A stretch of 64,000 nucleotides of DNA from positions 72,320-136,319 of the forward strand of contig DAISJM010000001.1 in NCBI GenBank assembly GCA_036821485.1, written 5' to 3'. The translations under genes were made by a program, and so were the position numbers. The notes beneath the pieces are model-generated. The model had not been told where the DNA came from. It saw only the letters and a program-made list of their open reading frames with translations, and searched no databases. Source of the DNA: Verrucomicrobiota bacterium (GTDB taxonomy: Bacteria > Verrucomicrobiota > Kiritimatiellia > CAIQIC01 > JAGNIJ01). Below are positions 9,077 to 33,200 of this stretch, one piece after another (the first letter of the stretch is position 1; each line of letters opens with the position of its first letter).

Positions 9077-9613
9077 CTAGGTCAGATCCTTCTGTGTGAC
9101 GTCGATCCAGCGCAGGAGACGGGTGCGAAGCTGTTCGTCTACATCAAGGGCAGCGAGCCTCTTCCTCAAGGTTGTTCCGCGAATCAATCCCTCTCCAAGA
9201 AGCGTTCGGACGAAATCCCGATCCTTTTCTCGGTAGGCAACCAGCTTGCTTGCCGCAAGGTCGTGTGCCTCGATGCATAAACCCGTCTTGCCCCGTGTCC
9301 CTATCTCGTCCATGACGGGGATCACTCGAGATTGCCAGCCAGAAGGAAGGGAAGCCGCGGCCAGAGAGACTCCATGCACGTAAAACCCGAAGGATTCATA
9401 GAATGAAGAGAGCTCGCCCAAGGAGCCGTCGACTTCATCCACCTTTTCAGGGTGGTTCTTGGGCTGAATATCAACTTCAACAGAAGCGCAGATACTTTTG
9501 GGTGCGTCAGGATACTCCCCCAAGATCGCCTGGGAACCAAAGACCCACACCTCGGTATCGCCAGCGACCTCACAAGCAGCTCTGATCGCATGTTCGAGCT
9601 GGTCCCGCGTCAT
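9077..9613 (-). CDS. Small nucleotidyltransferase-fold protein (AbiEii/MNT-like candidate toxin)
   Basis: 178 aa. ..TEVWVFGSQAILGEY..SVEVDI.. fits the NTase hG[GS]...[DE]h[DE]h pattern. The start overlaps the upstream wHTH gene by 4 nt. Local GC is ~55%, against ~65% for the flanks. Confidence 0.55.
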   Translation of the reverse strand: MTRDQLEHAIRAACEVAGDTEVWVFGSQAILGEYPDAPKSICASVEVDIQPKNHPEKVDEVDGSLGELSSFYESFGFYVHGVSLAAASLPSGWQSRVIPVMDEIGTRGKTGLCIEAHDLAASKLVAYREKDRDFVRTLLGEGLIRGTTLRKRLAALDVDEQLRTRLLRWIDVTQKDLT

Positions 9614-10726: not shown

Positions 10727-13168
10727 CTATGACTTCGCCTTCTTCTGCTTTCCGGGCGAGGTCTTGAATTCGTAGGCTTCGGGTTTCCCGAGGAAGCAGA
10801 GGCCGATGTAGTGGCCTTTCACATCGTCGTACGGGATGTGATTGAGCTCGAGCGCGATCTTCTCCGCGGTCAGCGGCATGCTCTTGATGCGGATCCCCAG
10901 CGCGTCTTCGATCGCGTTGGCGATGACCGGTGCGGCCGGGATCATGGTGTGCTCGCCGACGCCGCGCGCGCCGAACGGGCCATCGGGCTGCGCCACTTCG
11001 ACAATGATCGGCACAATCTCGTCGGGAATATCCAGTGCTGTCGGAATTTTGTAATCCGTAAAATTCGGGTTCAGCAGCTTGCCTTTGTGGTCATACCGGA
11101 TGTCTTCGTAGAGCGCTGTCGCGAGGCCCTGCACCACGCCGCCGGTGACCTGGCCTTTCACGAGGTCGGGGTTGATCGCTTTGCCGACGTCGGCTGCCAG
11201 CACCGCCTTCAGCACATGAATCTTGCCGGTCTTTCGGTCGATCTCCACTTTCACCGCCGAGGCGCCGACCGTGTAATGAACGTTCGGGTGTCCGCCCTGG
11301 CTGGTTTCCGGATCGCCTGTCGCCGAGGTGAATTCGGGCATGAACATGCCACTGCCGAGGATGGGCCCGCCGATGAAGTTCCCGCGCTTCGTCTGGATGC
11401 CGCTGATGACCATGTCCTTCAGCGCCATGGCGAAGTCGGGCTTCGTCCGGCACTTGATGGTCTCCTTTTCCAGGTAGAGGTCGGCGACGGCGAACCCGAG
11501 CGCGCGGTGTACCGTGTCGAAGATCTTCGCCTTTGCGTCAAGCGCCGCGGCCTTTACCGCGTTGCCGCAGCCCCACGTGACGTGCGAGCCGACGGTCTGC
11601 CATTCGTACGCGTTGCGGTCCGTGTCCGGCAACTCGACGCGGATATGTTCAACGGGAACAGTGAGCACCTCGGCCGCGACCTGCGCCATGACGGTAAGGA
11701 AGCCCTGCCCGATTTCCATGCCGGAGACGGTCAGGTTCAAGCTGCCATCTTCGTTGAACTTGATGAACGCCGCCGATGCGGCGTTCGGCGGCATCGCGGG
11801 CGCCTTCCAGAAGCAGGCGAAGCCCTTGCCGATGGCTTTGTTCGGGTCCTTCGACACTTCCTTCTTGCCCCAATCGATTTCCCTCGCAACCTTGTCGATG
11901 GCCTCGACAAGTCCGCTGGGATTCATCTCCGCGCCGTACGGCAGCGTGTCGCCGCCGCAAATGGCGTTCTTGCGCCGGAATTCGACGGGGTCCATGCCAA
12001 TCATCTTGGCGATGCGGTTCATATGCGACTCGAGGCCGAACATGAACTCCGAATAGCCGAAGCCGCGGTAAGGGCCGCCCGGCGGCAGGTTGGTATAGAC
12101 GCACACAGAATCGATTTTCACATTCGGCACGCGGTAGGGTCCGGTCGCGGAGAGGCCGACCGCGTTCACGACGTTCGCGCCGTACTCCACGTAGCCGCCG
12201 GCATCCCAGTGCAGGGTGTGTTCGATTGCGGTGATCGTGCCGTCCTTCTTCACGCCCAGCTTGATGCGGGCGATCACGCCCTGCCGCTGGTAGGTGTTGT
12301 AGAACTCCTGCGCGCGCGACCAGCGGACCTTGACCGGGTGGCCTTTGACCATCATGGCGAGGGCGGCGCCGAGGATTTCCATCGACACGCCTGCCTTGCC
12401 GCCGAATCCGCCGCCGACGTAGGGCGTGACCACGCGGACGTCCTTGTGCTTCAAGCCGAGCGGAGCGAGGGCCTCGGCGAACACGTGGCGCTGCGTGTAG
12501 GGCGATTGCGAGGCGGACCACAACGTGAGGCGGCCGGAGAGGTCGTAGAGGCCGACGATCACGTGCGGCTCGATCGCGCAGTGCGCGTAGCGCGGCACGG
12601 TGTAGGTGTCTTCGAGGATGGTGTCCGCTTCCTTGAATCCCTTTTCCATGTCGCCCTTGCGCGTCTTGCGCCAGTGGGCGATGTTGGTCCCGGCCTGCGG
12701 GAAGAACCACGCGCAGTGGTTGTACTTCTCGAGGTCCGGGTGGACGAGGGTGGCCTTCTCTTTCAGCGCGCCTTCCAGGTCGAGGACGTACGGCAGCTCC
12801 TCGTATTCTACGTGCACGAGCTTGGCCGCGAGCTTGGCTGTTTGCGCGTCGCGCGCGATGACGGCCGCGACCTGTTCGCCGACGAAGCGAACCCGATCGC
12901 GGGCGAAGATCCAGCGGTCCTGCATGTAGAGGCCGAAGCGGTAGGGGAAGTCGTCGCCGGTGACGACCTTGACCACGCCGGGAATCTTCTCGGCTTCTGC
13001 CGTGTCGATGTTCTTGATCCGTGCGTGGGCGAACGGGCTCTCGATGATTTCGGCATGCAGGAGGTTGGGGCCGAAATCCATGTCGTCCACGTACACCGCC
13101 GCGCCGCTGACCTTGTCCAGGCCATCGATGCGGACCGAGGGTTGTCCAACGTGTTTGAGTTCGCTCAT
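10727..13168 (-). CDS. Xanthine dehydrogenase family molybdopterin-binding large subunit
   Basis: 813 aa. GGGFGGK, the aldehyde oxidase/XDH a/b-hammerhead and MoCo-binding signatures are conserved throughout. Confidence 0.9.
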   Translation of the reverse strand: MSELKHVGQPSVRIDGLDKVSGAAVYVDDMDFGPNLLHAEIIESPFAHARIKNIDTAEAEKIPGVVKVVTGDDFPYRFGLYMQDRWIFARDRVRFVGEQVAAVIARDAQTAKLAAKLVHVEYEELPYVLDLEGALKEKATLVHPDLEKYNHCAWFFPQAGTNIAHWRKTRKGDMEKGFKEADTILEDTYTVPRYAHCAIEPHVIVGLYDLSGRLTLWSASQSPYTQRHVFAEALAPLGLKHKDVRVVTPYVGGGFGGKAGVSMEILGAALAMMVKGHPVKVRWSRAQEFYNTYQRQGVIARIKLGVKKDGTITAIEHTLHWDAGGYVEYGANVVNAVGLSATGPYRVPNVKIDSVCVYTNLPPGGPYRGFGYSEFMFGLESHMNRIAKMIGMDPVEFRRKNAICGGDTLPYGAEMNPSGLVEAIDKVAREIDWGKKEVSKDPNKAIGKGFACFWKAPAMPPNAASAAFIKFNEDGSLNLTVSGMEIGQGFLTVMAQVAAEVLTVPVEHIRVELPDTDRNAYEWQTVGSHVTWGCGNAVKAAALDAKAKIFDTVHRALGFAVADLYLEKETIKCRTKPDFAMALKDMVISGIQTKRGNFIGGPILGSGMFMPEFTSATGDPETSQGGHPNVHYTVGASAVKVEIDRKTGKIHVLKAVLAADVGKAINPDLVKGQVTGGVVQGLATALYEDIRYDHKGKLLNPNFTDYKIPTALDIPDEIVPIIVEVAQPDGPFGARGVGEHTMIPAAPVIANAIEDALGIRIKSMPLTAEKIALELNHIPYDDVKGHYIGLCFLGKPEAYEFKTSPGKQKKAKS

Positions 13169-13638
13169 GACCGCTTCCCTGCCTTCCTGCTCACTTCGCG
13201 AACGGCCTCGATGATGGGTTCATAGCCGGTGCAGCGGCACAGGTTGCCGGAAATCGCTTCCTGGATTTCCTTCTTGTCGGGGTGGCTATTGTGCCGGAGC
13301 AGTTCTGTCGCAGCCAGCACCATCCCCGACGCGCAGAAGCCGCATTGGAAAGCGTTGCGGTCGACGAACGCGTGTTGCAGCGGCGTCAGGCCGTCACGGC
13401 CGAGGCCTTCGACGGTGGTAATCTCATGTCCGTCCGCCTCGATGGCGAGGATGAGACAACTCCGGACGGTTTTCCCGTCGTAGAGGATTGTGCAGACGCC
13501 GCAGTCGCCGCGCTCGCAGCCGATCTTCGGGCTCTTGATGCCGAGCTTCTCGCGCAGGACATCCAGCAGGATGTCGGAGGGGGAGACATCGATGCTCCGA
13601 CGTTCACCGTTGAGCGTGATCGATATAGTCTTCTTCAT
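13165..13638 (-). CDS. (2Fe-2S)-binding small subunit of the molybdenum hydroxylase
   Basis: 157 aa with CERGDCGVCT and CGFCASGM cluster motifs. Its stop overlaps the large-subunit start. Confidence 0.9.
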   Translation of the reverse strand: MKKTISITLNGERRSIDVSPSDILLDVLREKLGIKSPKIGCERGDCGVCTILYDGKTVRSCLILAIEADGHEITTVEGLGRDGLTPLQHAFVDRNAFQCGFCASGMVLAATELLRHNSHPDKKEIQEAISGNLCRCTGYEPIIEAVREVSRKAGKRS

Positions 13639-13723
13639 GTGTGCTGCCTCGGAGTTGGAAAATCGAAATGTGAAAGTTGCCGGGAAGAGCCGGAGGTAAG
13701 TTTCCAGTTTCCAATTTCAAACG

Positions 13724-14614
13724 TCATATCAGCTCCTTCCCGTACTCGGGGCCGTCGCCCTCGAATCGTGAATCCGCCGCGCGGAGCGCGCGCTCCAACA
13801 TGACGCCGAGCATGTGCAACCGGTACTCCTTCGAAGAACGGATGTCGGTGATGGGCGACGCGATTTGTGGCACCATGGCAACCGCGGAGGCGACGAGCGC
13901 GTCCGTGATCGGCTTCCCCTCGAGCAGCTTCTCGATGGGCGTCGCGCGGATCGGGGTGGGGGCGACCGAACCGAAGGCGACGCGGTAGCTCTGCCCGTGG
14001 AACAGCATGACCGTGACGCTCGCCTGGGCGAGGTCCTCGCCGCTGTAGCGGCGCAATTTCACGAAGCAGCCCGCATGTTTTCTCCGGGGCTGCGGTATGG
14101 TGATGGCGACCGCGACCTCGCCCTTGTGGAGCGACGTCTTGCGCGGGCCGGTGAACCACTCCGCGATGGGAATCTTCCGCTTGCCCTTCGGGCCGGCCAC
14201 GTGAACCGTGGCATCGTAGACCAGCAGGATCGGGCCGCTATCGCAGCATGGGACGGCGGAGCAGATATTGCCGGCCATCGTCGCGCGATGCCGGATGCCG
14301 TTGGAAGCCACCCAGCCGATCATCTCGCGGATCAGCGGGAACTTCTTGCGGACCACGTTCGACTCGGCGATGTCGCTGAAGGTCGCAAGCGAGCCAATCC
14401 GGAGCGCGCCATCCTTGAGCGATACGCCGTCCAGCCCGCGGATGCCCTTGAGGTCGATCACCGCCTCGGGGCGGACGATGTCCTCCGTCATCAGGCTGAT
14501 GAGGTCGGTACCGCCCGCGAGCAGGCGACCGCGGTCGCCGTAGCGCGCCAGTGCCCGCGCGGCCTCGGCAACCGATGCGGGCTTCAGATAATCAAACGCA
14601 CGAGCAATGGTCAT
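13724..14614 (-). CDS. FAD-binding subunit (CoxM/XdhB-like) of the molybdenum hydroxylase
   Basis: Start trimmed to MTIARAFDYLKP (ATG at 14614) after a GGAAGGGAG RBS. LLAGGTDLISLM is the FAD-binding motif. Confidence 0.85.
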   Translation of the reverse strand: MTIARAFDYLKPASVAEAARALARYGDRGRLLAGGTDLISLMTEDIVRPEAVIDLKGIRGLDGVSLKDGALRIGSLATFSDIAESNVVRKKFPLIREMIGWVASNGIRHRATMAGNICSAVPCCDSGPILLVYDATVHVAGPKGKRKIPIAEWFTGPRKTSLHKGEVAVAITIPQPRRKHAGCFVKLRRYSGEDLAQASVTVMLFHGQSYRVAFGSVAPTPIRATPIEKLLEGKPITDALVASAVAMVPQIASPITDIRSSKEYRLHMLGVMLERALRAADSRFEGDGPEYGKELI

Positions 14615-14649
14615 GATGCTCCCTTCCGCGTTCCGCTCTCCTGATTCAA

Positions 14650-15468
14650 TTACTTGGGCGGCAGCATCGCGACGATGCGACACTGCGCCGATTCCAGTTC
14701 AATTCCGCGCATCGGGAAGCAGCCGATCCAGCAGCGCTGGTTGCTCAGCTTCCCGATCTCGCCGCCGATATTCTCCGCATGCACGAGTTTCTTGGGGAAC
14801 AACTTGAGATGCATGACCTGGTAGTAGTAATCCGGCGGGAACATCTCGTCCCAGCTCTTGCCGTACTTCGCCTTCAGCTTGGCCTCGGCCTCGAGGAACC
14901 GTGCCGGATGCCAGGTGCGGATAATCGTGTTCATGGGGTGATCCGCGCTGCCGCAGTCGACGCCGATCCACTTGATCTTCATCTTCAGCGCCCACTTGTC
15001 GAAGCCGGGGCCGGGGCCAGGATGTTTCACGAAGTAACGGACTTCGTCCGAACCGGGCTGATCCCATGCGTAGCGATTGTAGCCGGTGTTGATGATCAGG
15101 ATGTCGCCCTTCCGGATGTCCGCGCGTTTCATCAGCATTTCGGGCGAATAGAGGTCATAGTCGCCGACGTCTTTTGAAATATCGACGACGACGCCGGGGC
15201 CGATCCACTCCTTGATCGGCACGTTGCCGATCGACCGGCCACTGGCATGGAAATGGATTTCACCATCCATGTGCGTGCCCACGTGGTTGCTCATGGTGAT
15301 GATCTGCCCGTTCGCGCCTTGGCCCATGTGTGCGCCGGCGATGCGCTTGAAATACTGGATGCCCATCGGCATATAGCTCGGCCACGGCGGCGTGTGAATG
15401 CTTAGCCGCTGGGTCAGATCGAACACGCGCGCTTCAGCCATTAATTTGATGAAATCGTTAGTCTTCAT
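14650..15468 (-). CDS. Cyclase-family protein (kynurenine formamidase-like metal-dependent hydrolase)
   Basis: 272 aa. The HVGTHMDGEIHF motif is typical of the putative-cyclase family. Confidence 0.8.
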   Translation of the reverse strand: MKTNDFIKLMAEARVFDLTQRLSIHTPPWPSYMPMGIQYFKRIAGAHMGQGANGQIITMSNHVGTHMDGEIHFHASGRSIGNVPIKEWIGPGVVVDISKDVGDYDLYSPEMLMKRADIRKGDILIINTGYNRYAWDQPGSDEVRYFVKHPGPGPGFDKWALKMKIKWIGVDCGSADHPMNTIIRTWHPARFLEAEAKLKAKYGKSWDEMFPPDYYYQVMHLKLFPKKLVHAENIGGEIGKLSNQRCWIGCFPMRGIELESAQCRIVAMLPPK

Positions 15469-15510
15469 TTTCCCGCACCTCCGGTTTCGTGTTGTTCGTG
15501 TCTTTCGTGG

Positions 15511-16791
15511 TTACTTCTTTAATCCTTTTGCCAATCCTTCAAACGCCTTCCGGAACGGTTCCAGCGGGGCGTTCAGCACGCCCGCGCCGATCTGGCCGAC
15601 ACCCGCCTGCTTGTGCGCGACACCGGTGTCGATGAACGGAAGGATGTTCTTCTCGATGATCTTCACGACGTCGATGCCAGTCGGTGTGCCGCGGAAATTG
15701 AGCGCCGGCACCTGGTACGCGTTATTCTCCCCGGCGGTGATTTCGTACATCTGTGTCGTGTAGCGAATCGAGTCGGCGACCTGGCCGCCGACGAACTGGA
15801 CAATCGCAGGCGCGGCGGCGATGGCGAAGCCGCCGAGGCCGTTGGTTTCCGTGATCGCGCTGTCGCCGATGTCCGGATTCGCGTCGGCCTTCGTGTAGCC
15901 GGGGAAATACAGCGCATCCGGCACGTCGGCAGGCCCGGTGAACCACGCGTTGCCCGTGCCGGCGAGTTGTACGCCGAAGTCGGTGCCGTTGCGCGCCATG
16001 ACGACTGCCACGCTGCTATTGGGGATGTTGCGCGCGGCATCGAGTGTCGCCTTCGATGCGGGCATGGAGAGGTTCAGGAAGAAGTGGTCGTTATGGTTGA
16101 TGAACTCCAGCACGTCGGAAGCGGTCTTCGGATCCGGCGCAGTGGTGATGACGGCCGGTGCAATCGTGCGATAGAGGATGGACGTTCCCGCGCGATTGCG
16201 GTTGTGGACCTCGTCGCCCATATGCAGCGCCTGCGCAATGATGTTCTTCAAATCGATCACGCCGATTTTCGCGATGGCCTTTTTCAGCGTCGGATAGAGC
16301 ACGCGCTCCATCCATTTGAGTCTCGCCACAACATCGTCCCCGTAGGCGCCGTAGCGCAGCACTTTGCCCAGCCCCTCGTTCTGCGTGCAGTAGGCGAAGT
16401 TGCCGAACGTGGCATTCTTCAGGACGAACACGGGCATGGAAGGGGAGATGATGCCGGCCATAGGGCCGACTGATGCGTGCTCGTGGCAGGGCGCATATTT
16501 GATGGTGCCGGATGACGCGAGGGCCTCGGCCTCTGTCGGGTTCTTTGCGCGGCCTTCATAGATCAGTGCGCCCATGATCGCGCCGCGCATCGGGCCGCAC
16601 ATCCGTTCCCAAGTCACCGGCGGGCCGGCGTGCAGGATCAGGTCGCGTTTCATGCCGGGGATGATGTCGATCGCGCGCTCCATGCCCACGAGCTGCGGCA
16701 TGCCGCCCAAGATGATTTCGATCGCCTTGCGGTTGGCCTTCTCAATGGCCGGTCGCCGTGCCGCGATGATCCGCAGAAGCTTGTCATCCAT
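15511..16791 (-). CDS. DUF1116 protein (YlbE homolog; oxamate carbamoyltransferase subunit family)
   Basis: Start chosen at MDDKLLRIIAARRP, giving 426 aa, close to E. coli YlbE at ~419 aa. LHAGPPVTWERMCGPMRGAIMGAL..YAPCHEHASVGPMAG match the family. The alternative GTG at 16932 (GTGA overlap with fdrA) would add 47 aa. Confidence 0.7.
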   Translation of the reverse strand: MDDKLLRIIAARRPAIEKANRKAIEIILGGMPQLVGMERAIDIIPGMKRDLILHAGPPVTWERMCGPMRGAIMGALIYEGRAKNPTEAEALASSGTIKYAPCHEHASVGPMAGIISPSMPVFVLKNATFGNFAYCTQNEGLGKVLRYGAYGDDVVARLKWMERVLYPTLKKAIAKIGVIDLKNIIAQALHMGDEVHNRNRAGTSILYRTIAPAVITTAPDPKTASDVLEFINHNDHFFLNLSMPASKATLDAARNIPNSSVAVVMARNGTDFGVQLAGTGNAWFTGPADVPDALYFPGYTKADANPDIGDSAITETNGLGGFAIAAAPAIVQFVGGQVADSIRYTTQMYEITAGENNAYQVPALNFRGTPTGIDVVKIIEKNILPFIDTGVAHKQAGVGQIGAGVLNAPLEPFRKAFEGLAKGLKK

Positions 16792-16928
16792 GTCCACCGG
16801 TGGCTTCCAGTCCACCTGTACCGCCTGTGCGCCGGAGGATGCCAGCGCATCCTTGAACGACGACAAGCCGAAGTTGACCACCTTGAGGTCCGTTTCAAAA
16901 AGCTGGTTAATGCCGCTCTTCTTCTTGC

Positions 16929-18428
16929 TCACTTCCCACCTGCCTTTGCCGCGTTGCCGGCGTATGCACACGCTGCGGCGTTGCTCGGCATCACGATGGC
17001 TCCAGCAGCCTTCAGGGCTTTGACCACCCGTGAACGATTCTGCGGGTCGCCGTCGGTGCCGGTGACCGAACATACCACCGGAACTTTGCGCGAGGCCGTG
17101 CGGATCACCGGTGCAAGTTCCGCGGCCGGGTCCATGTTCGAGCCGTAACCGAGTACGACGTCCAGCAGGATCACGGCAGTCTCGGGATCAGCCGCCTCCG
17201 CCAGAATCCGTTTGTTGCGTAACGAGAAGTCGATCATCGGATGCGGTCGGCCGACGGTAAACTCGTCCTCGCCCAGATCGACGAACGAGTGCTTCTGGCT
17301 CTTCAACGAATCCTTGAGCCGCTTCGTCCTGCCGGTCGGCGCGTTGGAGTAGAGTTGGCCGAGCGTGTCCTCGAGAATGATTTGCGCTTCTGCGCAGAAC
17401 GTTCCGCCGCTGAACAAGCCCCGGACGTATTTGCGGCGGCCGCGGGCGCGCCGCGGCCGGCTCTGAGATCCGACCCTATCTTGAAGGTCTTCAATCTTGC
17501 GGCCTGTCGCGAGCGCAACTGCTTGCAGCGCAGCCTCTTCCAGCGTCTTTGGTCCGTCTCCTTCCGCGCCGAGAAGTAGCGAGACAACGGGCTTACGGAT
17601 GCGGCGCACTTCACGGCGGACGCGGTTCAGCACGCTGGGGTGGGGCGGTTTGGAGACGAGCAGGATGACCTTCGTCTGCGGGTCGGCGGCGAGCGCCTTC
17701 AGGCCGGCGAGGAACATGATGCCGCCGACTTCCTTCTTTACGTCGCGCCCGCCCGTGCCGATTGCCTGTGAAATACCGGAGCCTTCGTTGGAGATGATGG
17801 TGCTGACTTCCTGGAGTCCGGTTCCGGCGGCGGCGACGATGCCGATCGGGCCGCGGCGAACCACGTTGGCGAAGGCGAGCGGGATGCCGTTGATGATCGC
17901 CGTGCCGCAGTCGGGACCCATGACGAGCAATCCCTTCTTTGCCGCGAACTTCTTGAGTTCGATTTCCTTCTCGATCGGCACGTTGTCGGAAAAGAGCATG
18001 ACGTGCAGGCCCTTCTCAAGACAGCGCATCGCGAGCGAGCCGGCATAACGACCGGCGACGGAGATCAACGCGAGGTTCGCGCCCGGCAGAACCTTCACGG
18101 CGCCGTCGAGATCAGACGGGAGCGTTTCACCGGAGGAAGTCCCGACGGCCGCGGCCTTGCTCTTGAGCGCGGCCTCGGCTGCGTTCAAAGCGGCCTCGGC
18201 TGTCTTGGCATCGCGCGCCTTCACGGCCAGCAGCAGGTCGGTATCGGTTGCCTTGGCAAAATCGGAGATCAGCAGGCCGGACGCCTTGAGGATGCCGAGG
18301 TTCGACTTCGTGCCCATGACAAGCGCGGCTTCGGCGACGCCGTCCGTGCCGGCAATGCTTTTGCCTACGCGCATCAGCGAGACGGAATCGTGGTAGGCGC
18401 CCTTTTTGATTCTGCCGAGGGTAATCAT
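16929..18428 (-). CDS. fdrA: FdrA-family protein (acyl-CoA synthetase/succinyl-CoA-synthetase-alpha-like)
   Basis: 499 aa. MITLGRIKKGAYHDSVSLMRV is a typical FdrA N-terminus, followed by CoA-binding and ATP-grasp-like regions. Confidence 0.85.
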   Translation of the reverse strand: MITLGRIKKGAYHDSVSLMRVGKSIAGTDGVAEAALVMGTKSNLGILKASGLLISDFAKATDTDLLLAVKARDAKTAEAALNAAEAALKSKAAAVGTSSGETLPSDLDGAVKVLPGANLALISVAGRYAGSLAMRCLEKGLHVMLFSDNVPIEKEIELKKFAAKKGLLVMGPDCGTAIINGIPLAFANVVRRGPIGIVAAAGTGLQEVSTIISNEGSGISQAIGTGGRDVKKEVGGIMFLAGLKALAADPQTKVILLVSKPPHPSVLNRVRREVRRIRKPVVSLLLGAEGDGPKTLEEAALQAVALATGRKIEDLQDRVGSQSRPRRARGRRKYVRGLFSGGTFCAEAQIILEDTLGQLYSNAPTGRTKRLKDSLKSQKHSFVDLGEDEFTVGRPHPMIDFSLRNKRILAEAADPETAVILLDVVLGYGSNMDPAAELAPVIRTASRKVPVVCSVTGTDGDPQNRSRVVKALKAAGAIVMPSNAAACAYAGNAAKAGGK

Positions 18429-19420
18429 TTTCGAGCCTTTGTTTTGAGGTTCCCCGTGGGTTCACCCCACGGGGGCCAGAATTCTGCCTCCTGCCGGTCA
18501 AGCCGGCAGGGAGGCAGGAGCATGGAGGCTCCCCGTGGGTTGACCCCACGGGAGCCAGAATTCTGCCTCCTGCCGCGCAAGGTGGCAGGGAGGCTCTTCA
18601 ACATCAACACGAACCCTGCGGTGAGGTCGGCGCCCGACGTTTCGCCGAGGGCAAGTACGCGACGGCCGCAGGAACGAACTTCGCGCGCGCTGCCGTGAAG
18701 CAGCGCGCCGATCAGGTTCTTCATCGGTTCAGCGACGAATCCGTCGCGGGCGAGGCCGAGAAAATGGGCGGAGAGCCGATGCCGAGTCCTCGCTGCAGCG
18801 TGGATCGTGGCAATCGCGCGGGAGTAATCGGTGTTTGTCAGGTTTCCTGCGAGATGCAGGGCCATCATTGCGCCTGCGAGGAAATCGTCGCCGCCCGGTG
18901 TCAGGCCAAAGCCACAACCGGCGAGGAGACGGCTCCCGCGCGCGAGCCGGCGCGGGTTGTTTAATCCGTCGAGCATGTCCTTCGCGCCCGCACGAATGCG
19001 CCGCGCAAACTGGCGGGAGAGCAAATCGGGCCCGGGCGCAGCGTGGGGGTCGAGCAGGAGCAAAAAGTTCCAAGGGTTGGAAAACTGGGGTACCCATTTT
19101 TCCAAGGATTTGAAATTTCGTGCGAAGCGCCGGCCGGGTACCTCATCGCGCGCGAGGTCGGAGCGATAGACCGGAGTCCGGCGGATGACGTGGCGGCGAT
19201 CGGAGAGGGTGACTGAACCGCGGCGGATGATCAGGCGTGGCGCGGCGCCGCAGAAGTCGCGCGCGGAACCTGCGACGACAAGGTTGGCCGGGCCAGCGCC
19301 GATCTCGGCGCTGACGACGGACACAAGGCGGCCGCCGCGGACGAAATTCACGGCACGATCAAAGCGGGAGTGAACGCAATACGTTCCTTCCCGCACTCTG
19401 TCGCCGATACTCAGCAGCAT
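18425..19420 (-). CDS. DUF2877 protein (YlbF homolog) carrying in-frame repeat-derived sequence
   Basis: GFGLTPGGDDFLAGAMMAL is the DUF2877 motif. The ORF is 331 aa against ~270 typical. The last ~60 codons are read from a tandem palindromic repeat, and codons ~101-118 from a TTCCAA palindromic element. Confidence 0.6.
   Translation of the reverse strand: MLLSIGDRVREGTYCVHSRFDRAVNFVRGGRLVSVVSAEIGAGPANLVVAGSARDFCGAAPRLIIRRGSVTLSDRRHVIRRTPVYRSDLARDEVPGRRFARNFKSLEKWVPQFSNPWNFLLLLDPHAAPGPDLLSRQFARRIRAGAKDMLDGLNNPRRLARGSRLLAGCGFGLTPGGDDFLAGAMMALHLAGNLTNTDYSRAIATIHAAARTRHRLSAHFLGLARDGFVAEPMKNLIGALLHGSAREVRSCGRRVLALGETSGADLTAGFVLMLKSLPATLRGRRQNSGSRGVNPRGASMLLPPCRLDRQEAEFWPPWGEPTGNLKTKARK
18449..18597. 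repeat. Two tandem ~78-bp units, each built of three palindromes
   Basis: The units are >90% identical: CCCCGTGGG-TTSAC-CCCACGGG, CAGAATTCTG and CCTCCTGCCGG-N-CCGGCAGGGAGG. They lie at the 3' end of the DUF2877 ORF, just upstream of the fdrA start. Confidence 0.8.
19064..19117. repeat. Palindromic element copy C (TTCCAAGGGTTGGAA-N12-TTCCAAGGATTTGAA), in-frame inside the DUF2877 gene
   Basis: Same family as 5598-5649 and 47278-47328, with the second half degenerate. It is 54 bp (18 codons) and translates as KSLEKWVPQFSNPWNFLL. Confidence 0.7.
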
Positions 19421-19455
19421 GAGCGGTTCCTGTCGGCGCCGCCTTGGGGCAACGC

Positions 19456-19803
19456 CTATTTCACCTCGGAGAAAATCATACCGAGGTGTTTCCGAAGATC
19501 GCTTTGTCTCACCACCGAGACGCTGCCCGTCACGGCCATGCCGGTGCGGGGTTTATCGATGTTGAGTTGGCCCAGGATGCGGAGACCGTTCTCCAACTCG
19601 ACAATGCCGAGCAGGAGCGTGGGCACGTTGAAATCGCCGGGCAGCGTGTGCAGCCGGGTGAAGGTCAGCAGCTTGCCTTTTCTCGGCAGGGGCACGGGTT
19701 CGAATTCATTGTGCTCGTTGGCATGGCACTTCTTGCAGACCATGCGGTAGGGGTAGTGGAGCTGGCCGCATTTCCGACATTTATAGGCATAGATTTCGGC
19801 CAT
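19456..19803 (-). CDS. DUF35 Zn-ribbon/OB-fold protein (thiolase/HMG-CoA-synthase partner)
   Basis: 115 aa. MAEIYAYKCRKCGQLHYPYRMVCKKCH is a C-x2-C...C-x2-C ribbon. RBS GGGAGGA. It starts 2 nt after the thiolase stop. Confidence 0.8.
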   Translation of the reverse strand: MAEIYAYKCRKCGQLHYPYRMVCKKCHANEHNEFEPVPLPRKGKLLTFTRLHTLPGDFNVPTLLLGIVELENGLRILGQLNIDKPRTGMAVTGSVSVVRQSDLRKHLGMIFSEVK

Positions 19804-19805
19804 GG

Positions 19806-20981
19806 CTAATCCTCCCGGATAAAGGTCAGGCAGACGACGTTGTTGCCGAATCCGCCGAAGTTGCAGGTGAAGCCTACCTTCGCATCCTTGACCTGGCGTT
19901 TGCGCGCTTCGCCGCGCAGTTGGGTGACGATTTCGTGCGCCTGCCCGATCCCGGTTGCGCCGACGGGGTGTCCCTTGGCCTTGAGGCCGCCGGACGTGTT
20001 GATCGGGATCTTGCCGCCGATGCGGGTCTCGCCCTTTTCGAGCGCGATGTGACCCTGCCCTTTCTTGAAGAAGCCGACTTCCTCGCTCTCGACGATCTCG
20101 AGGATGGTGAACGCATCGTGCAGTTCGGCCACGCTGACATCGGATGGTTTCACACCGGCCATCTTGAACGACTGCTCGGCGGCGCGGCGCACGGCCAGCA
20201 GGTCCGTCGGGTTCTCGCGCTCGTGTACCGCATGCGTGTCGGTCGCCTGGCCGACGCCGGCGAGGCGGACGAGCGGGCGGCCGGTCTTCTTTGCGACTTC
20301 CTTCGTGGCGAGAATGACGCATGCGCCGCCGTCGGAAACGGGGCATAGATCGAAGAATCGTAGCGGCTCGGCGACGTACGGGTTGTTCGTCAGCGCCTCG
20401 GGTCCGTCGAGGATGCCCTCGATCGTGATCTTCTGGTGCAGGTGGGCGAACGGGTTGAGCATCGCGTTGTCGTGGTTCTTCACCGCGACCATGGCGAGGT
20501 GGCGCGAGGTGACGCCGTACTGCTCCATGTAGAGCCGGGTGAACATGCCCGCGAGGGAGGGCAGGGTCACGCCGTAGATGTATTCCGCGATCTGGTGCGT
20601 GAGCGTGGCGACGAAGTCCGTCGCCTCGAGGTTGTTGGTTTCGCGCATGCGTTCCGCGCCGGTGACCATGACAACGTCGTGGAGGCCGGAGGCGACCGCC
20701 ATGAAGCCCTGCTTGATGGCGGAAGCGCCGGAAGCGGGTCCGTTTTCAATCGTTTCCGCGCCGGCGGGTGTGAGGCTGAGGGTATCGATCACGGCGCTGG
20801 CGAGCGCGGTCTGACCGTTCACGCGGCCGCTGCCCATGTTGGCCACGTAGAGGTGATCGATCTTCGACAGCCCGGCGTCCTTGAGGGCGATCATCGCCGG
20901 ATAGGCGGCGATTTCGGAGATGGGGTAATCGAGCCGGGAGAAGCTCGTGATGCCGATGCCGACGACATAGACCTCGCGCAT
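19806..20981 (-). CDS. Thiolase-like protein (archaeal-type acetyl-CoA acetyltransferase / SCP-x-like)
   Basis: Start at MREVYVVGIGITSF (ATG at 20981, RBS GGGAAGG). The condensing-enzyme fold is recognisable and the C-terminus reads NFGGFGNNVVCLTF. Confidence 0.85.
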   Translation of the reverse strand: MREVYVVGIGITSFSRLDYPISEIAAYPAMIALKDAGLSKIDHLYVANMGSGRVNGQTALASAVIDTLSLTPAGAETIENGPASGASAIKQGFMAVASGLHDVVMVTGAERMRETNNLEATDFVATLTHQIAEYIYGVTLPSLAGMFTRLYMEQYGVTSRHLAMVAVKNHDNAMLNPFAHLHQKITIEGILDGPEALTNNPYVAEPLRFFDLCPVSDGGACVILATKEVAKKTGRPLVRLAGVGQATDTHAVHERENPTDLLAVRRAAEQSFKMAGVKPSDVSVAELHDAFTILEIVESEEVGFFKKGQGHIALEKGETRIGGKIPINTSGGLKAKGHPVGATGIGQAHEIVTQLRGEARKRQVKDAKVGFTCNFGGFGNNVVCLTFIRED

Positions 20982-20982
20982 G

Positions 20983-21756
20983 TTACGCCTTCCCTTCGGG
21001 GCCGTCGGCTTCGCCATGCTCGAGCCTCCAGCGCTGCTGGAGGATCGCGGTGCCGGTGGGGTCCTTCATGGCCCGCGTGGCTGCCATGAGATCCGCGGGC
21101 GGTTTGGGCGGGTTGGATGGCGGAAGAATCTTGTCCTGCGCCTTCTTCAGTTCATCCGGCGGGACGGGGCGGCGGCCGACGACGAGCGTGCTGCGCGCCT
21201 TGTTGAATAATTCCTTGGTCAGCGCCCACGAGGGGACGCCGCCGAGTTCGTGGGCGATGTCGAACCGCTTCTCGAGCTGGTACTCGATCATCCACCGGCG
21301 GAAGCCGATGGGCGATTCGGCGACGATGAGGACCTCCTTCTGGCCGACGATGTCGAGGTGGTACTCCATCTTGGCCGCGAAGGCGTGAGCGCCGACGCGG
21401 AGGCCGCGCCGGAGGGCGAGGGTGTGGTAGGACACGCCGACGTCCTTGCTGGCAAAGCGGCCGTTGACGATCGCGGCGAGCTCGCCGTTGATCTGGGCGA
21501 TCAGCACGTACTCGTCCTGAACGCGATGGCGGTAGTAGCCGAGCAGTTCGGCGTACACGCGTACGGAAACGATGTCGTAGAAATCGCGCTCGACGTGGAT
21601 CAGCGGTTCCACGTGCGGAAGGAGGTCGGGAATTTCTTCGCGCCCCACCTGGCGGACGACCATGTTCTCGCCGCTGGCGAGCTGCATGAACTTGGGTGGA
21701 AACGGCGGCGCGGGGTGATCGATCGGCCGGAGGATTTTCTCGAGTTCTACCGCCAT
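20983..21756 (-). CDS. Hypothetical protein, first gene of the minus-strand catabolic operon
   Basis: 257 aa starting at MAVELEKIL (RBS AAGGGGG). No recognisable motif; an acyltransferase-like alpha/beta pattern is possible. Confidence 0.45.
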   Translation of the reverse strand: MAVELEKILRPIDHPAPPFPPKFMQLASGENMVVRQVGREEIPDLLPHVEPLIHVERDFYDIVSVRVYAELLGYYRHRVQDEYVLIAQINGELAAIVNGRFASKDVGVSYHTLALRRGLRVGAHAFAAKMEYHLDIVGQKEVLIVAESPIGFRRWMIEYQLEKRFDIAHELGGVPSWALTKELFNKARSTLVVGRRPVPPDELKKAQDKILPPSNPPKPPADLMAATRAMKDPTGTAILQQRWRLEHGEADGPEGKA

Positions 21757-21962: not shown

Positions 21963-22934
21963 ATGGCCAGGTCCCGAACCGCATCAGGGCTGAAGTCCCG
22001 CGTGAAACGCGTGACGGTTGCCGGCGTACAGGTCTCCCCGCGCCCGAACGATATTCCCCACAACGTGGAGATGGTGATCTCGTGGTTTCGGCGCGCGGTG
22101 CGCGAGACGGATGCGCGACTGGTCGTGTTCCCGGAGAGCATCACCACCGGGTTTCATCCCGGCATGCCGCTGGAGCAATTTCACGATCTGCTGCCGCGCC
22201 GCGTCGAATCGATGCTGGCGCCGATCCAGCAGGTGTGCCGCGAGAAGAAGTCTTATTGCGTGGTACCGACCTATGAGCGCGGGCGCGGGCATCGCACGAT
22301 CTACAACAGCGCGTTCCTGATCGACGGGCGAGGCGATATCGCCGGCGTCTACCGCAAGACGCATCCGTTTCCGACGGAGCGGTTGAGCGCGGGCGGCTGG
22401 ACGACGCCGGGCATGGAGTATCCCGTGATTCCGACCGAGTTCGGCGCCGTCGGCATGATGATCTGCTACGACGGCGATTTCCCGGAAGTGTCACGTATCC
22501 TCGCGATCAAGGGTGCGCAAATCATCGCGCGGCCGTCCGCGCTGCTGCGCGGGTTCGACGTGTGGGAGATGACGAACAACGTGCGTGCCTATGACAACCA
22601 CGTCTACCTCGTGGCGGTCAACGCGGTCGGCACCGATGCGTCCGGCACGCACTACTTCGGCCACAGCATGATCGTCTCGCCGACGGCGCAGGCGCTGGCC
22701 GTGGCGCGCGGCACGGAGGAGATCATCTACGCGGAACTGAATCCCAATCCGCTCAAACGGCTGGGGTTGGGTTCCGATGCGCCGATGCTGTTCGACCATC
22801 TTGAGGACCGCAATGTCGCGTCGTACGGTTCGGTGTTGTCGCGGTCGGTCCGCAGCCCGTTCGAGCCGGCGAAGAGGTTCAGTATTCACAAGCACACGCC
22901 GCAACGCGGGAAGAAGTCCGGGAGGTCCTCATGA
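21963..22934 (+). CDS. Carbon-nitrogen hydrolase (nitrilase-superfamily amidase / N-carbamoyl-amidohydrolase-like)
   Basis: 323 aa. The E-K-C catalytic triad context is present: LVVFPES, YRKTHPF and MMICYDGDFPE. RBS GAAAGGAA. Confidence 0.85.
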   Translation: MARSRTASGLKSRVKRVTVAGVQVSPRPNDIPHNVEMVISWFRRAVRETDARLVVFPESITTGFHPGMPLEQFHDLLPRRVESMLAPIQQVCREKKSYCVVPTYERGRGHRTIYNSAFLIDGRGDIAGVYRKTHPFPTERLSAGGWTTPGMEYPVIPTEFGAVGMMICYDGDFPEVSRILAIKGAQIIARPSALLRGFDVWEMTNNVRAYDNHVYLVAVNAVGTDASGTHYFGHSMIVSPTAQALAVARGTEEIIYAELNPNPLKRLGLGSDAPMLFDHLEDRNVASYGSVLSRSVRSPFEPAKRFSIHKHTPQRGKKSGRSS

Positions 22935-24559
22935 AGTTCGACCGCAACAGGAAGGACTACGAGGAGCGCATCCGCCGGGGCCGCGCGTTCGCCGACGGCA
23001 AGCTGGTGCCGAAGGAGCGCGTGGTGGACCTGCTCAACGCCGTGCTGAAGCGGGGCGACCGGGTGTGCATCGAGGGCGACAATCAGAAGCAGGCCGATTT
23101 CCTCGCAAAGCGGCTGCTCGAGGTGGATCGCAAAAAGATTCGCGACCTGCACATGGTGCAGTCGACGCTCGTGTTGCCGGAGCACGTCGAGCTGTTCCGG
23201 CAGGGCATTGCGTCGCGGCTGGATTTTGCCTACTCGGGCCCGCAAGCGAAGAACCTCTATCAATTGGTGGCCGAGAAGAAGGTCCGCATCGGGGCGATTC
23301 ACACGTACCTGGAGCTCTACGGCCGTTACTTCGTGGACCTTTGTCCGCAGGTGGCGATGCTCGTTGCCGAGGCTTGCGACGACGAGGGCAACATCTACAC
23401 CGGGTTCAATACGGAAGATACGGCGCTGATCAGCGAGGCAGCCCACTTCAAGTCCGGCGTGGTCATCATCCAAGTGAAGGAGAAGGTGCGCAAGCTGCCG
23501 CGCGTGGACATTCCCGCGGGCTGGGTGGACTTCATCGTCGTCACCGGCGAGGAGTATCACCTGCAGGCGCTTTTCACGCGCGACCCGGGGAAGATCACTG
23601 CATCGCAAGTGCTCATGGCGATGATGGTGATGAAGGGTATCTACAAGGAATACCAGGTGCGGTCGCTGAATCACGGGCTTGGCTACGCCACGGCGGCGAT
23701 TGAGCTGCTGCTGCCCACCTACGGGCGCGAGCTGGGCCTGAAGGGCAAGTGCTGTACGCACTGGGTGCTCAATCCGCATCCGACGCTGATCCCCGCGATC
23801 GAGCGCGGCTTCGTGGAGCACATCTATTCCTTCGGCGGCGAGCCGGGCATGGAGGCGTACACGCAGGCGCGGGGCGACGTGTTCTCGATCGGCTCCGACG
23901 GTAACCTGCGCTCGAATCGGTGCTACGCGCACATTGCGGGGTTGTACGCCATCGACTTGTTCATCGGCGCGACGCTGCAGATGGACGGGGATGGAAATAG
24001 TTCCACAGCCATCAAGGGTATGATCGCCGGATTCGGCGGGGCGCCCAATCTCGGCGGCACCCCGCCGGGGCGGCGGAATTTCACCGAGGCGCTGGTGCGG
24101 GCGGGTCGCTGGGACGGGAAGGTGTTCCAGGGTCGCAAACTCGTCGTGCAGATGACGCCGACGGTGAGCGAGAAGAAGCAGATCCCGGTGTTCGTCGAAG
24201 AGCTCGACGCGATGACGCTTTACCGGGACAAAGTTTTTGCGAAACCGCCGGTGATGATCGCGGGCGACCAGGTGACGCACGTGGTGACGGAGCGTGGCAT
24301 CGCGTATCTCGACCGCTGCAAGGATTTGGCGACGCGGCGGCTGGCGATCGCCGCCGTGGCGGGCGACACACCGGTTGGCCGTACGATCAAGAAATCACAG
24401 GTGGGTCCGCTGCGACGCGCGGGCATTGTGAAGACGGCGGAAGACTTGGGGATCGATGTTCAGAAGGCGACGCCGGACCGGTTGGCGGCGCACAGCCTGG
24501 CCGATCTCGTGCGGATTTCGAAGGGCCTGTATTCTGTGCCGCCCGGCGTCACGGGGTGA
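22931..24559 (+). CDS. Malonate decarboxylase alpha-subunit (MdcA)-like acyl-transferase (citrate-lyase-alpha/CoA-transferase fold); orphan, with no mdcBCDE nearby
   Basis: 542 aa. It matches MdcA along its length from memory: GDRVCIEGDNQKQADFL, DLHMVQST, IGAIHTYLELYGRYF, LPRVDIPAGWVDF, TAAIELLLPTYG, GSDGNLRSNR, AGFGGAPNLGG and GRKLVVQM. ATGA overlap with the upstream hydrolase. Confidence 0.6.
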   Translation: MKFDRNRKDYEERIRRGRAFADGKLVPKERVVDLLNAVLKRGDRVCIEGDNQKQADFLAKRLLEVDRKKIRDLHMVQSTLVLPEHVELFRQGIASRLDFAYSGPQAKNLYQLVAEKKVRIGAIHTYLELYGRYFVDLCPQVAMLVAEACDDEGNIYTGFNTEDTALISEAAHFKSGVVIIQVKEKVRKLPRVDIPAGWVDFIVVTGEEYHLQALFTRDPGKITASQVLMAMMVMKGIYKEYQVRSLNHGLGYATAAIELLLPTYGRELGLKGKCCTHWVLNPHPTLIPAIERGFVEHIYSFGGEPGMEAYTQARGDVFSIGSDGNLRSNRCYAHIAGLYAIDLFIGATLQMDGDGNSSTAIKGMIAGFGGAPNLGGTPPGRRNFTEALVRAGRWDGKVFQGRKLVVQMTPTVSEKKQIPVFVEELDAMTLYRDKVFAKPPVMIAGDQVTHVVTERGIAYLDRCKDLATRRLAIAAVAGDTPVGRTIKKSQVGPLRRAGIVKTAEDLGIDVQKATPDRLAAHSLADLVRISKGLYSVPPGVTG

Positions 24560-25808: not shown

Positions 25809-26001
25809 CGCGAGGTCCTCCTAGTAACGTAACCCGAGTTAACATACCGACATGGGTCGGGCGTGTTCAGCCATCGCGGAGTCTTTCGACCTATATTTTT
25901 CCGTGCCGGCGCGGTATTGGTGAGCTGTTGGTTCCGTGTTCTTTATGGCGCGGATTACAATTACGAGTACGAGTGCGAACAAGAGCACGAGGAGAGACCC
26001 C

Positions 26002-32132: not shown

Positions 32133-32242
32133 ATGTCCAATGACCAATGCCCGAATGACCAGTGAAGGCGCAGCAGACGGGAGTCTTCTATTATTGGGCC
32201 TTGGTGCTTGGTCAATGGTCATTGCTCAGGAGGGTCCATTGC

Positions 32243-33190: not shown

Positions 33191-33200
33191 AATGGGGGCT

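Follow-up and report, generated by a model that had tools for sequence, protein, structure and literature searches.

The aerobic oxidative pathway of pyrimidine degradation, reportedly worked out by Hayaishi and Kornberg in 1952 and by Soong, Ogawa and Shimizu in 2001-2002, employs uracil/thymine dehydrogenase (EC 1.17.99.4), barbiturase (EC 3.5.2.1) and ureidomalonase. In Escherichia coli the genes fdrA-ylbE-ylbF encode oxamate carbamoyltransferase (Kim & Kim 2024, PMC11326118); this AllFGH enzyme, the only characterised member of its family, phosphorolyses the acylurea oxalurate to carbamoyl phosphate and is independent of CoA (PMC11326118). Here we describe a ten-gene operon in which a distinct version of this trio (AllH-FdrA-AllG) is joined to a molybdenum (Mo) hydroxylase, a cyclase-family hydrolase and a unit of GNAT-fold, thiolase-like and DUF35 proteins. 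It lies on a 64,000-nucleotide stretch (hereafter the window; contig DAISJM010000001.1, positions 72,320 to 136,319, G+C about 62%) of a metagenome-assembled genome (MAG) of a Verrucomicrobiota bacterium from the Kiritimatiellia (GCA_036821485.1). Tentatively, with a probability of roughly 0.4, we read the operon as specifying the oxidative breakdown of a pyrimidine base under anaerobic conditions, uracil and/or thymine being the likeliest substrates. An earlier sequence-only reading had invoked the E. coli assignment, correctly as PMC11326118 confirms, and had proposed a succession of ring hydroxylation, ring opening and carbamoyl transfer acting on a purine, a pyrimidine or another N-heterocycle.

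Architecture of the operon

Ten consecutive genes run head-to-tail on the minus strand from 21756 down to 10727. ORF (open reading frame) listing and junction analysis confirm the arrangement, with its short or overlapping junctions, as first proposed, and Pfam and NCBIfam searches recover every family named at that stage, in the same order:

20983..21756, minus strand: GNAT-fold protein of 257 aa, operon gene 1, from an unnamed family (the earlier "unknown protein")
19806..21017, minus strand: thiolase-like protein without the nucleophilic Cys (Thiolase_N and Thiolase_C_1; probable true start at ATG 20981, giving 391 aa)
19456..19803, minus strand: DUF35 protein with Zn-ribbon and OB fold (zf-ChsH2 PF12172, OB_ChsH2_C PF01796)
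18425..19420, minus strand: AllH/DUF2877-like subunit (PF11392, E 1e-21)
16929..18428, minus strand: FdrA/AllF-like subunit (NF004760, 487 bits, cut-off 433; PDB 3dmy, E. coli FdrA, E 1e-87)
15511..16932, minus strand: AllG/DUF1116-like subunit (PF06545, E 7e-97; its GTG start overlaps the FdrA stop as GTGA)
14650..15468, minus strand: cyclase-family metal-dependent hydrolase (PF04199, E 7e-33), the proposed ring-opening enzyme
13724..14614, minus strand: FAD subunit of the Mo hydroxylase (FAD_binding_5 and CO_deh_flav_C)
13165..13638, minus strand: [2Fe-2S] (FeS) subunit of the Mo hydroxylase (Fer2 and Fer2_2)
10727..13168, minus strand: Mo (molybdopterin) subunit, last gene of the operon, a xanthine-dehydrogenase-family hydroxylase (Ald_Xan_dh_C and MoCoBD_1/2)

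From 5' to 3' the junctions measure +1 (or -35 with the longer thiolase start), 2, 35, -4, -4, 42, 35, 85 and -4 nt; three are start-stop overlaps of the ATGA or GTGA type, and a Shine-Dalgarno-like motif precedes each of the ten starts. Independent gene calls on contigs of the MAG GCA_964523715.1 and the JGI metagenome 3300009783 agree with this layout. Spacing and synteny are the grounds on which the ten genes are predicted to be co-transcribed, a scan for consensus promoters and terminators having returned counts at or below shuffled expectation and being uninformative on this point. Rfam searches of the whole window (at gathering scores) and of the 5' intergenic region (E up to 1) recovered no riboswitch that would name a ligand, the matches being limited to two tRNAs and one chance-level match.

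Conservation and spread of the module

A scan with an AllG pattern, using one genome per species, yielded at least 573 confirmed matches; the 80 best loci were compared by tblastn with the window proteins, and the 32 with at least 8 kb on both sides are termed well-flanked. These 80 loci span more than ten phyla, including Verrucomicrobiota, Kiritimatiellia, Lentisphaerae, Acidobacteriota, Elusimicrobiota, Bacteroidales, Cloacimonadota, Eisenbacteria, Ignavibacteria, Myxococcota, Planctomycetota and Zixibacteria. FdrA, AllG, the cyclase and the FAD, FeS and Mo subunits are colinear in most of them, and in 53 of 68 loci the cyclase follows AllG downstream at a distance of no more than 2.5 kb. 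Within the well-flanked set FdrA is present in all 32, the cyclase in 25, the Mo subunit in 23 and the GNAT/thiolase-like/DUF35 genes in 12; the complete colinear core recurs in 21 of the 32, an arrangement far beyond chance. The sequence-only reading had drawn attention to the trio being joined to a Mo hydroxylase and a cyclase-family hydrolase; this association is real and conserved across phyla. Identity to the window proteins in the best 80 loci is 74-87% for the cyclase, 67-81% for the Mo subunit, 68-80% for AllG and 56-88% for the thiolase-like protein, while AllH is the least conserved gene of the module at 24-41%.

The AllG homologues of 74-88% identity that top a search of 5.8 billion proteins all derive from MAGs, and a second homologue search seeded with the Bacteroidales copy returned only MAGs and no cultured carrier. 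The carrier lineages are known mainly from anoxic habitats; judging by isolate names, the sampled sites include SPRUCE peat and an anaerobic membrane bioreactor. In Elusimicrobia the order is rotated (Cyc-FAD-FeS-Mo-[CN-hydrolase]-AllH-FdrA-AllG), and in four Cloacimonadota loci the GNAT/thiolase-like/DUF35 genes follow the Mo subunit rather than precede AllH. Since the same genes are kept in these altered orders, their associations evidently survive rearrangement. The flanking genes are otherwise unrelated between loci. Cross-phylum identity (loci L005-L084) far above vertical expectation, together with flanks that share nothing, points to repeated horizontal transfer of the whole module, a self-contained unit that has probably spread in this manner. 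Pfam analysis of the neighbours of trio loci that have no cyclase or xanthine dehydrogenase genes found only unrelated genes (GDH, helicase, HD-GYP, SBP). Three Acidobacteriota MAGs (L017, L035 and L060) display a variant locus, FdrA-AllG-cyclase-AllH, with no Mo hydroxylase genes, and these organisms may import an already oxidised base.

A third clade of AllH-FdrA-AllG proteins

The three-subunit set of the oxamate carbamoyltransferase family is complete in the operon, as the matches listed above indicate. FdrA, with its CoA-binding and ligase domains, is related to the alpha subunit of succinyl-CoA synthetase, and the sole structural relative of AllG is another DUF1116 protein (3clq). With Pfam naming AllG and AllH and NCBIfam naming FdrA, one could take the trio for a plain oxamate carbamoyltransferase orthologue, acting on oxalurate in purine or allantoin breakdown beside an ordinary xanthine dehydrogenase. 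Sequence comparisons argue otherwise: the window FdrA is 42% identical to both AllF and YahF, AllG is 46% identical to YahG and 43% to YlbE (E. coli AllG and YahG share 45%), and AllH shares 30% identity with E. coli YlbF and 21% with YahE. Orthology to AllFGH in preference to YahEFG was not found, the trio being equidistant from both and having the gene order and domain boundary of YahEFG. The earlier view of it as the AllFGH counterpart thus fails, and it constitutes a third clade, distinct from both E. coli sets.

In common with E. coli AllFGH, the window has the same three families adjacent in one operon, and the chemistry proposed below is by analogy the same, namely phosphorolysis of an N-carbamoyl-amide to carbamoyl phosphate and an amide. 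It differs in that the F and G subunits share only 42-43% and H 30% identity with their AllFGH counterparts, no closer than to YahEFG; in the order H-F-G as opposed to F-G-H; in that about 55 residues of the AllF C-terminus sit at the N-terminus of the window AllG; in lacking an adjacent carbamate kinase or allantoin genes; and in being joined to the Mo hydroxylase and cyclase-family hydrolase. The E. coli yahE-yahF-yahG-yahI-yahJ cluster shares with it the H-F-G order and subunit sizes as well as the pairing with a possible ring-opening hydrolase (YahJ, an amidohydrolase), and YahI is 51% identical to a carbamate kinase of the window. However, the yah cluster has this kinase adjacent to the trio and has no Mo hydroxylase, cyclase or CoA genes, and the trio identity is only 42-46%.

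The Mo hydroxylase and the cyclase-family hydrolase

The Mo, FeS and FAD subunits carry the full domain set of the xanthine dehydrogenase family, and yet they fall below the cut-off of every NCBIfam equivalog. For the Mo subunit the best models are XdhA (532 bits, cut-off 780) and the alpha subunit of 4-hydroxybenzoyl-CoA reductase (4-HBCR; TIGR03194, 523 bits, cut-off 995), followed by PRK09970 (504 against 916) and pucD (436 against 784); for the FAD subunit the best is XdhB (189 bits), and for the FeS subunit all equivalogs are below cut-off. In the bovine enzyme E802 and R880 bind xanthine. Alignment to human xanthine oxidoreductase places Ala at both positions in the window Mo subunit (GGGFGGK-A and VVN-A-VGL), whereas the GVGE motif with the catalytic Glu is retained, as seen against the corresponding segment of Desulfovibrio gigas aldehyde oxidoreductase. 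From these features the Mo enzyme is predicted to be a hydroxylase of the family and not a xanthine dehydrogenase.

These observations bear directly on the notion of an ordinary xanthine dehydrogenase feeding an oxalurate-specific trio. It can claim XdhA and XdhB as the best NCBIfam models of the Mo and FAD subunits, and the purine-related YgeW, carbamate kinase and YgeX-like genes located nearby. However, all the Xdh scores are far under their cut-offs, both xanthine-binding residues are replaced, and uricase, allantoinase, allantoate and ureidoglycolate enzymes are absent from the best 80 loci. Similarly, none of the enzymes producing oxalurate (allB/C/E/D) was found in the window annotation or in the neighbour families of these loci. 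Moreover, conversion of urate to allantoin normally needs O2, and the carriers belong mainly to anoxic lineages. We accordingly regard this alternative as highly improbable.

In the PDB the Mo subunit is matched best by the 4-HBCR alpha subunit (E 2e-96), which raises the prospect of a CoA-thioester pathway with no carbamoyl transfer, wherein the Mo enzyme would act on a (hetero)aromatic acyl-CoA like 4-HBCR, the trio would be an acyl-CoA synthetase-like or acyl-transfer enzyme, and the GNAT, thiolase-like and DUF35 proteins would process the CoA ester. The CoA-binding and ligase domains of FdrA, the CoA-related nature of three of the ten genes and the want of a module-linked carbamate kinase all accord with such a scheme. 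Against it, a 4-HBCR-type reductase was considered and rejected: the alpha score is about half the cut-off, the FAD subunit matches the beta model, which includes an extra FeS-cluster insert, only in two fragments (130 against 404 bits), and the gamma model reaches 153 against 258 bits. Furthermore, the GNAT/thiolase-like/DUF35 genes are accessory, judging from their occurrence in well-flanked loci; the sole biochemistry available for the trio family is CoA-independent carbamoyl transfer; and no CoA ligase or aromatic-ring reductase recurs nearby, the recurrent neighbours being amidases and nucleobase permeases. A CoA-thioester pathway is hence improbable.

The cyclase-family protein had been described as kynurenine-formamidase-like. 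This holds for its Pfam cyclase domain and its metal motif (HVGTHMDGEIH), which aligns with that of kynurenine formamidase, but not at equivalog level, as the arylformamidase model TIGR03035 scores just 52 bits against a cut-off of 223 and covers only the N-terminal 100 residues. Distant matches to isatin hydrolase were also recovered. The PF04199 family includes isatin hydrolase, which acts on a cyclic amide, and the ring-cleaving dihydrophloroglucinol cyclohydrolase; the window protein shares with these enzymes and kynurenine formamidase the HxGTHxDxxxH metal motif, and the family thereby offers precedents for hydrolytic opening of both a cyclic amide and a cyclic beta-dicarbonyl. It is nevertheless distant from them (E 1e-10 to KynB, in the N-terminal half), and at 272 aa has a distinct C-terminal half.

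Accessory genes and the nature of the product

Unbiased Pfam counts over the 143 nearest non-module ORFs gave as leading functional families 8 family III CoA-transferases (CoA_transf_3), 7 members of the Amidase family (15 loci have an amidase within 6 kb), 7 NCS2 permeases (Xan_ur_permease) and 7 divergent copies of AllH. In the window itself two genes are transcribed divergently from the operon:

21963..22934, plus strand: CN-hydrolase, a nitrilase-superfamily amidase (PF00795, E 2e-48)
22931..24559, plus strand: MdcA-like malonate CoA/ACP-transferase (PF16957, E 8e-233, full length)

The former shows weak similarity to formamidase, nitrilase and aliphatic amidase, and the latter lies just below the cut-off of TIGR01110 (736 against 789 bits). 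No MdcB, C, D, E, G or H was found beside this MdcA, whose neighbours are the CN-hydrolase, an aminotransferase and a transketolase-like protein. The CN-hydrolase/MdcA pair also adjoins the trio in a second Kiritimatiellia locus (L034). In Bacteroidales and Cloacimonadota an amidase, whose best full-length PDB match is malonamidase E2 (E 3e-41), adjoins a CoA-transferase directly downstream of the Mo subunit, and in Elusimicrobia a YafV/omega-amidase-like CN-hydrolase is inside the module. The recruitment of three unrelated amide hydrolases to the same module suggests that its product is an amide, and the MdcA-like and malonamidase-E2-like enzymes suggest that this amide is malonamate.

The linked permease scores 351 bits with a uracil-permease model, against 298 for RutG and 205 for pbuX, and the versions in Cloacimonadota and Bryobacterales possess the E-N-x-G motif of the UraA type (that of L052 reads TTYAENMGVMAITR). 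Two Cloacimonadota loci (L041, 18755-19189; L073, 13798-14232) encode a small CGGC-domain protein between DUF35 and the uracil-type permease. Of the three substrate classes originally entertained, the pyrimidines are thus favoured by the accessory genes, while the purines lose ground with the missing xanthine-binding Glu and Arg.

The same enzymatic logic might operate on another N-heterocycle, such as hydantoin or imidazolone oxidised to parabanate and opened to oxalurate, a purine ring or another oxopyrimidine, with the downstream amidases and CoA-transferases acting on oxamate and oxalate or some other dicarboxylate monoamide. The family evidence for hydroxylase, hydrolase and trio is substrate-independent and would serve such a route equally; the family III CoA-transferase finds its best model in acetyl-CoA:oxalate CoA-transferase (384 bits, below cut-off), omega-amidase-like enzymes could accept oxamate as well as malonamate, two of the linked permeases have a Q-N-x-G motif, and genes for the tail of the reductive urate pathway are present in the window. 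However, the MdcA-like protein is near a malonate-specific equivalog, the amidase is closest to malonamidase E2, most linked permeases are uracil-type, the xanthine-binding pair is missing, and none of the best 80 loci has allB/C/D/E genes. To our knowledge, moreover, no abundant natural heterocycle other than uracil and thymine would give an acylurea after a single hydroxylation. Another N-heterocycle is on this evidence unlikely, if still a serious contender.

A proposed route for uracil and thymine

Gene content and order, conservation, families, active-site substitutions and accessory-gene statistics are the direct observations from which we infer all substrates and products of the pyrimidine route. 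The Mo hydroxylase would hydroxylate uracil at C6 with water, giving barbiturate and passing two electrons to the FeS/FAD chain. The cyclase-family metal hydrolase, in place of the unrelated aerobic barbiturase, would open barbiturate to ureidomalonate (N-carbamoylmalonamate). By analogy with the E. coli oxalurate reaction, here on a substrate one CH2 longer, AllH-FdrA-AllG would use phosphate to convert ureidomalonate to carbamoyl phosphate and malonamate. A carbamate kinase encoded 10 kb away could then convert carbamoyl phosphate to ATP, NH3 and CO2. Malonamate would be deamidated by the divergent CN-hydrolase (in other lineages by the malonamidase-E2-like amidase or the omega-amidase-like CN-hydrolase), and the resulting malonate activated by the MdcA-like transferase or, elsewhere, the family III CoA-transferase. 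Lastly, the GNAT-fold, Cys-less thiolase-like and DUF35 proteins probably form a CoA-dependent unit converting the C3 fragment (malonyl-CoA or malonamate) to acetyl-CoA and CO2.

Several observations weigh against this route. The substrate of the Mo enzyme is not readable from its sequence: the Ala/Ala pocket argues against xanthine alone, and the closest PDB structure is, as noted, that of a reductase acting on a CoA ester. We know of no cyclase-family barbiturase nor of any family member acting on barbiturate. At 42-46% identity to both E. coli paralogues, even the oxalurate specificity of AllFGH is not transferable to the trio. Carbamate kinase is found within 8-10 kb in none of the 32 well-flanked loci, though every other trio clade inspected has one immediately adjacent, and the amino-acid-kinase family, along with OTCase and urease, is missing from the top 25 neighbour families. 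Only 4-5 of the best 80 loci have a uracil-type permease, and two Acidobacteriota loci without Mo genes (L017 and L060) have permeases with a Q-N-x-G motif (Q-N-I-G), which is typical of xanthine and urate carriers. MdcA is confined to two loci (the window and L034), and the GNAT/thiolase-like/DUF35 step is the least certain of the proposed route.

The GNAT/Cys-less thiolase-like/DUF35 unit

The product of operon gene 1, rightly called unknown insofar as it has no Pfam or NCBIfam match, can now be placed as a GNAT-fold protein of an unnamed family of about 3000 proteins; its loop RRGLRVGA deviates from the canonical Q/R-x-x-G-x-G/A CoA-binding motif. The label thiolase given to the second gene is apt for its fold (Thiolase_N/C) but not for its activity, as Pro occupies the position of the catalytic Cys (tiengPasga, compared with kieaaCasgg in 7yvy and rveaaCasgs in 6esq). 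The motif IENGPASG is invariant in 24 of 24 module-linked homologues, including those only 56% identical. With the nucleophilic Cys missing, the protein cannot form an acyl-enzyme or carry out thiolysis; on sequence grounds the Cys-less fold would fit a decarboxylase or a lyase with an acyl-CoA substrate. It scores 408 bits with PRK06064, below the cut-off of 420, and its best PDB matches are archaeal-type acetoacetyl-CoA thiolases, with Ltp2 (6ok1) also among the matches. Ltp2 of the Ltp2-ChsH2 aldolase is likewise not known to possess a nucleophilic Cys. DUF35 proteins are the usual partners of thiolase-like proteins, and the window version has the CxxC...CxxC signature and weak similarity to BbsA. 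The pairing of a thiolase fold with a DUF35 Zn-ribbon/OB protein is thus shared with the Ltp2-ChsH2(DUF35) aldolase and the archaeal thiolase/HMG-CoA synthase/DUF35 complex, from which the window differs in having a GNAT-fold protein as third partner in place of HMG-CoA synthase or a hydratase, and in the Cys to Pro replacement within its unique invariant motif.

In Cloacimonadota and Bacteroidales the GNAT unit was not found in the same locus as the CoA-transferase and malonamidase-E2-like amidase. This raises the possibility that the two may be alternative means of processing the same amide. It might be speculated that the GNAT/Cys-less thiolase/DUF35 complex converts malonamate and CoA to acetyl-CoA, CO2 and NH3, with the thiolase-like protein as decarboxylase and DUF35 as scaffold; such a complex may couple an uphill transfer from amide to thioester to a downhill decarboxylation.

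Relation to known pyrimidine pathways

The proposed route would share with the aerobic oxidative pathway the intermediates barbiturate and ureidomalonate, and malonate as end product of the carbon skeleton. It would differ in that the ring is opened by a cyclase-family enzyme and not by a barbiturase of the AtzD family; in that cleavage is by phosphate, giving carbamoyl phosphate and malonamate and potentially ATP, where aerobes use water and obtain urea and malonate; and in its hosts, which are MAGs of mainly anoxic lineages. A paper from 2025 lists four pyrimidine pathways. Our literature search yielded no barbiturate route in anaerobes and no paper that assigns genes to uracil dehydrogenase; nor did it find a description of this cluster or a matching pathway, in line with the initial impression that no characterised pathway fits the operon. 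The parts of the module belong to known families, and it is their combination for which no published description was found.

Were the route correct, pyrimidine catabolism would gain a fifth pathway in addition to the reductive, aerobic oxidative, Rut and URC pathways, and the first of them with the potential to save energy through substrate-level phosphorylation. The orphan enzyme uracil/thymine dehydrogenase would then have genes, the AllFGH family, now two years old, would extend beyond its single substrate to acylurea phosphorylases in general, and functions would follow for a cyclase-family enzyme, the unnamed GNAT-fold family and a Cys-less thiolase-like protein. That such a fifth pathway exists in its entirety, with an anaerobic, sequence-orphan uracil dehydrogenase, a cyclase-family "barbiturase", ATP-yielding ureidomalonate phosphorolysis by the AllFGH clade and the GNAT/thiolase/DUF35 complex, is a doubtful proposition. 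Even with a different substrate, a module of 7-10 genes that keeps about 70-85% identity from phylum to phylum gives biochemists a well-defined target.

Other clades of the trio

PLSDB was searched with AllG and the annotations around the matches inspected; cultured hosts were recovered for other clades of the trio only, with AllG 49-54% identical to that of the window. On the Citrobacter freundii plasmid pE51_002 (L089, NZ_CP042536.1, 106458-116536) the cluster comprises AtzD, an NCS2 permease, DUF2877-FdrA-DUF1116, carbamate kinase (arcC) and LysR, the AtzD cyanuric-acid hydrolase being an equivalog (581 bits). Gene content here points to phosphorolytic breakdown of cyanuric acid, carboxybiuret or biuret with a yield of ATP, encoded on conjugative enterobacterial plasmids. 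PLSDB contains at least about 100 records of E. coli plasmids with a match to AllG, of which one was inspected; this plasmid (L088, NZ_CP100501.1, 21009-28992) combines a BiuH-like cysteine hydrolase with the trio, arcC, a cytosine permease and a 129-aa C-terminal fragment of allophanate hydrolase. Among the E. coli replicons with a trio cluster are the IncK2/Z plasmid pLH50-c-A and others like it. The megaplasmid EAL2_808p of Peptoclostridium acidaminophilum (L087, NZ_CP007453.1) has PucR, two permeases, a BiuH-like hydrolase, the trio and arcC. The BiuH-like cysteine hydrolases of these last two replicons (L087 and L088) score 280-319 bits, below the cut-off of 370.

These clusters resemble the window in the order DUF2877-FdrA-DUF1116 and in having next to it a hydrolase of the ring-opening or ureide type together with a nucleobase permease. 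In contrast to the window, their hydrolases are AtzD or BiuH-like, pointing to s-triazine or biuret-type ureides, all have an adjacent arcC, and none has the Mo hydroxylase, the cyclase or the GNAT/thiolase-like/DUF35 genes. Taken with the E. coli yahEFG-yahI-yahJ and allFGHK clusters, they yield a clear family theme, in which a ring or ureide hydrolase would make a carbamoyl-amide, the trio would free carbamoyl phosphate and carbamate kinase would make ATP. With other trio clades thus adjoining such hydrolases, the logic of ring hydroxylation, ring opening and carbamoyl transfer in the sequence-only reading stands as the best interpretation. AtzD and barbiturase are homologues of the same family. 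With cyanuric acid as triazine isostere of barbiturate, and the two hydrolases homologous, barbiturate and ureidomalonate would be a natural substrate pair for a sister clade of the trio.

Carbamate kinase, YgeW and the remainder of the window

In a separate block on the opposite strand lie YgeW and carbamate kinase, formerly linked to the operon as a means of recovering ATP from carbamoyl phosphate, together with a third gene:

30921..32132, plus strand: YgeW knotted carbamoyltransferase, outside the conserved module, a true equivalog (NF005538, 724 bits, cut-off 453)
32162..33190, plus strand: carbamate kinase (AA_kinase; 51% identical to E. coli YahI, 36% to AllK)
33150..34478, plus strand: YgeX-like pyridoxal-phosphate (PLP) enzyme (PALP, E 4e-73; assigned by Pfam family and gene position only)

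YgeX adjoins YgeW in E. coli. YgeW functions in reductive urate (2,8-dioxopurine) degradation (PMC12507026), and the three genes make up the tail of this pathway, confined to 30.9-34.5 kb and apart from the ten-gene operon. No homologue of SsnA, HyuA or XdhD turned up among the window ORFs scanned, which implies that the front end of the urate pathway is elsewhere or has been replaced. Thus, both genes of the supposed link are real and about 10 kb from the operon, but the link is no feature of the module, given its absence from the well-flanked loci; the proximity is limited to the window genome and one close relative. The YgeW, carbamate kinase and YgeX-like proteins are also explained by the reductive urate pathway, and it is possible that the kinase consumes carbamoyl phosphate from both.

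The close relative (L005) has YgeW, carbamate kinase and a serine dehydratase immediately next to the GNAT gene, and the CN-hydrolase, MdcA, aminotransferase and transketolase-like genes are all four absent from it. In the window the aminotransferase and transketolase-like protein (809 aa) are encoded at 24615-28365, on the stretch that leads from the operon to the serine dehydratase/YgeW block, and a YgeY-like M20 peptidase and a PLP protein of 537 aa at 3985-6857. Two genes that overlap by 4 nt lie directly downstream of the Mo subunit, at 9077-10551 on the minus strand; they encode a winged-helix/DUF7342 protein of 313 aa and a DUF6036 nucleotidyltransferase-like protein of 178 aa. The two are peculiar to the copies from this genome and might be a toxin-antitoxin-like or defence pair. 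The regions 35985-44426 and 53389-58719, unrelated to the module, encode two tandem giant subtilase/lamin-tail-domain proteins (1474 and 1338 aa), a 1777-aa ORF, PEP-CTERM and fucosidase genes, and tRNAs are present at 44481 and 53236; the subtilase, PEP-CTERM and fucosidase features together with the tRNAs fit a host of the PVC group (Verrucomicrobiota/Kiritimatiellia).

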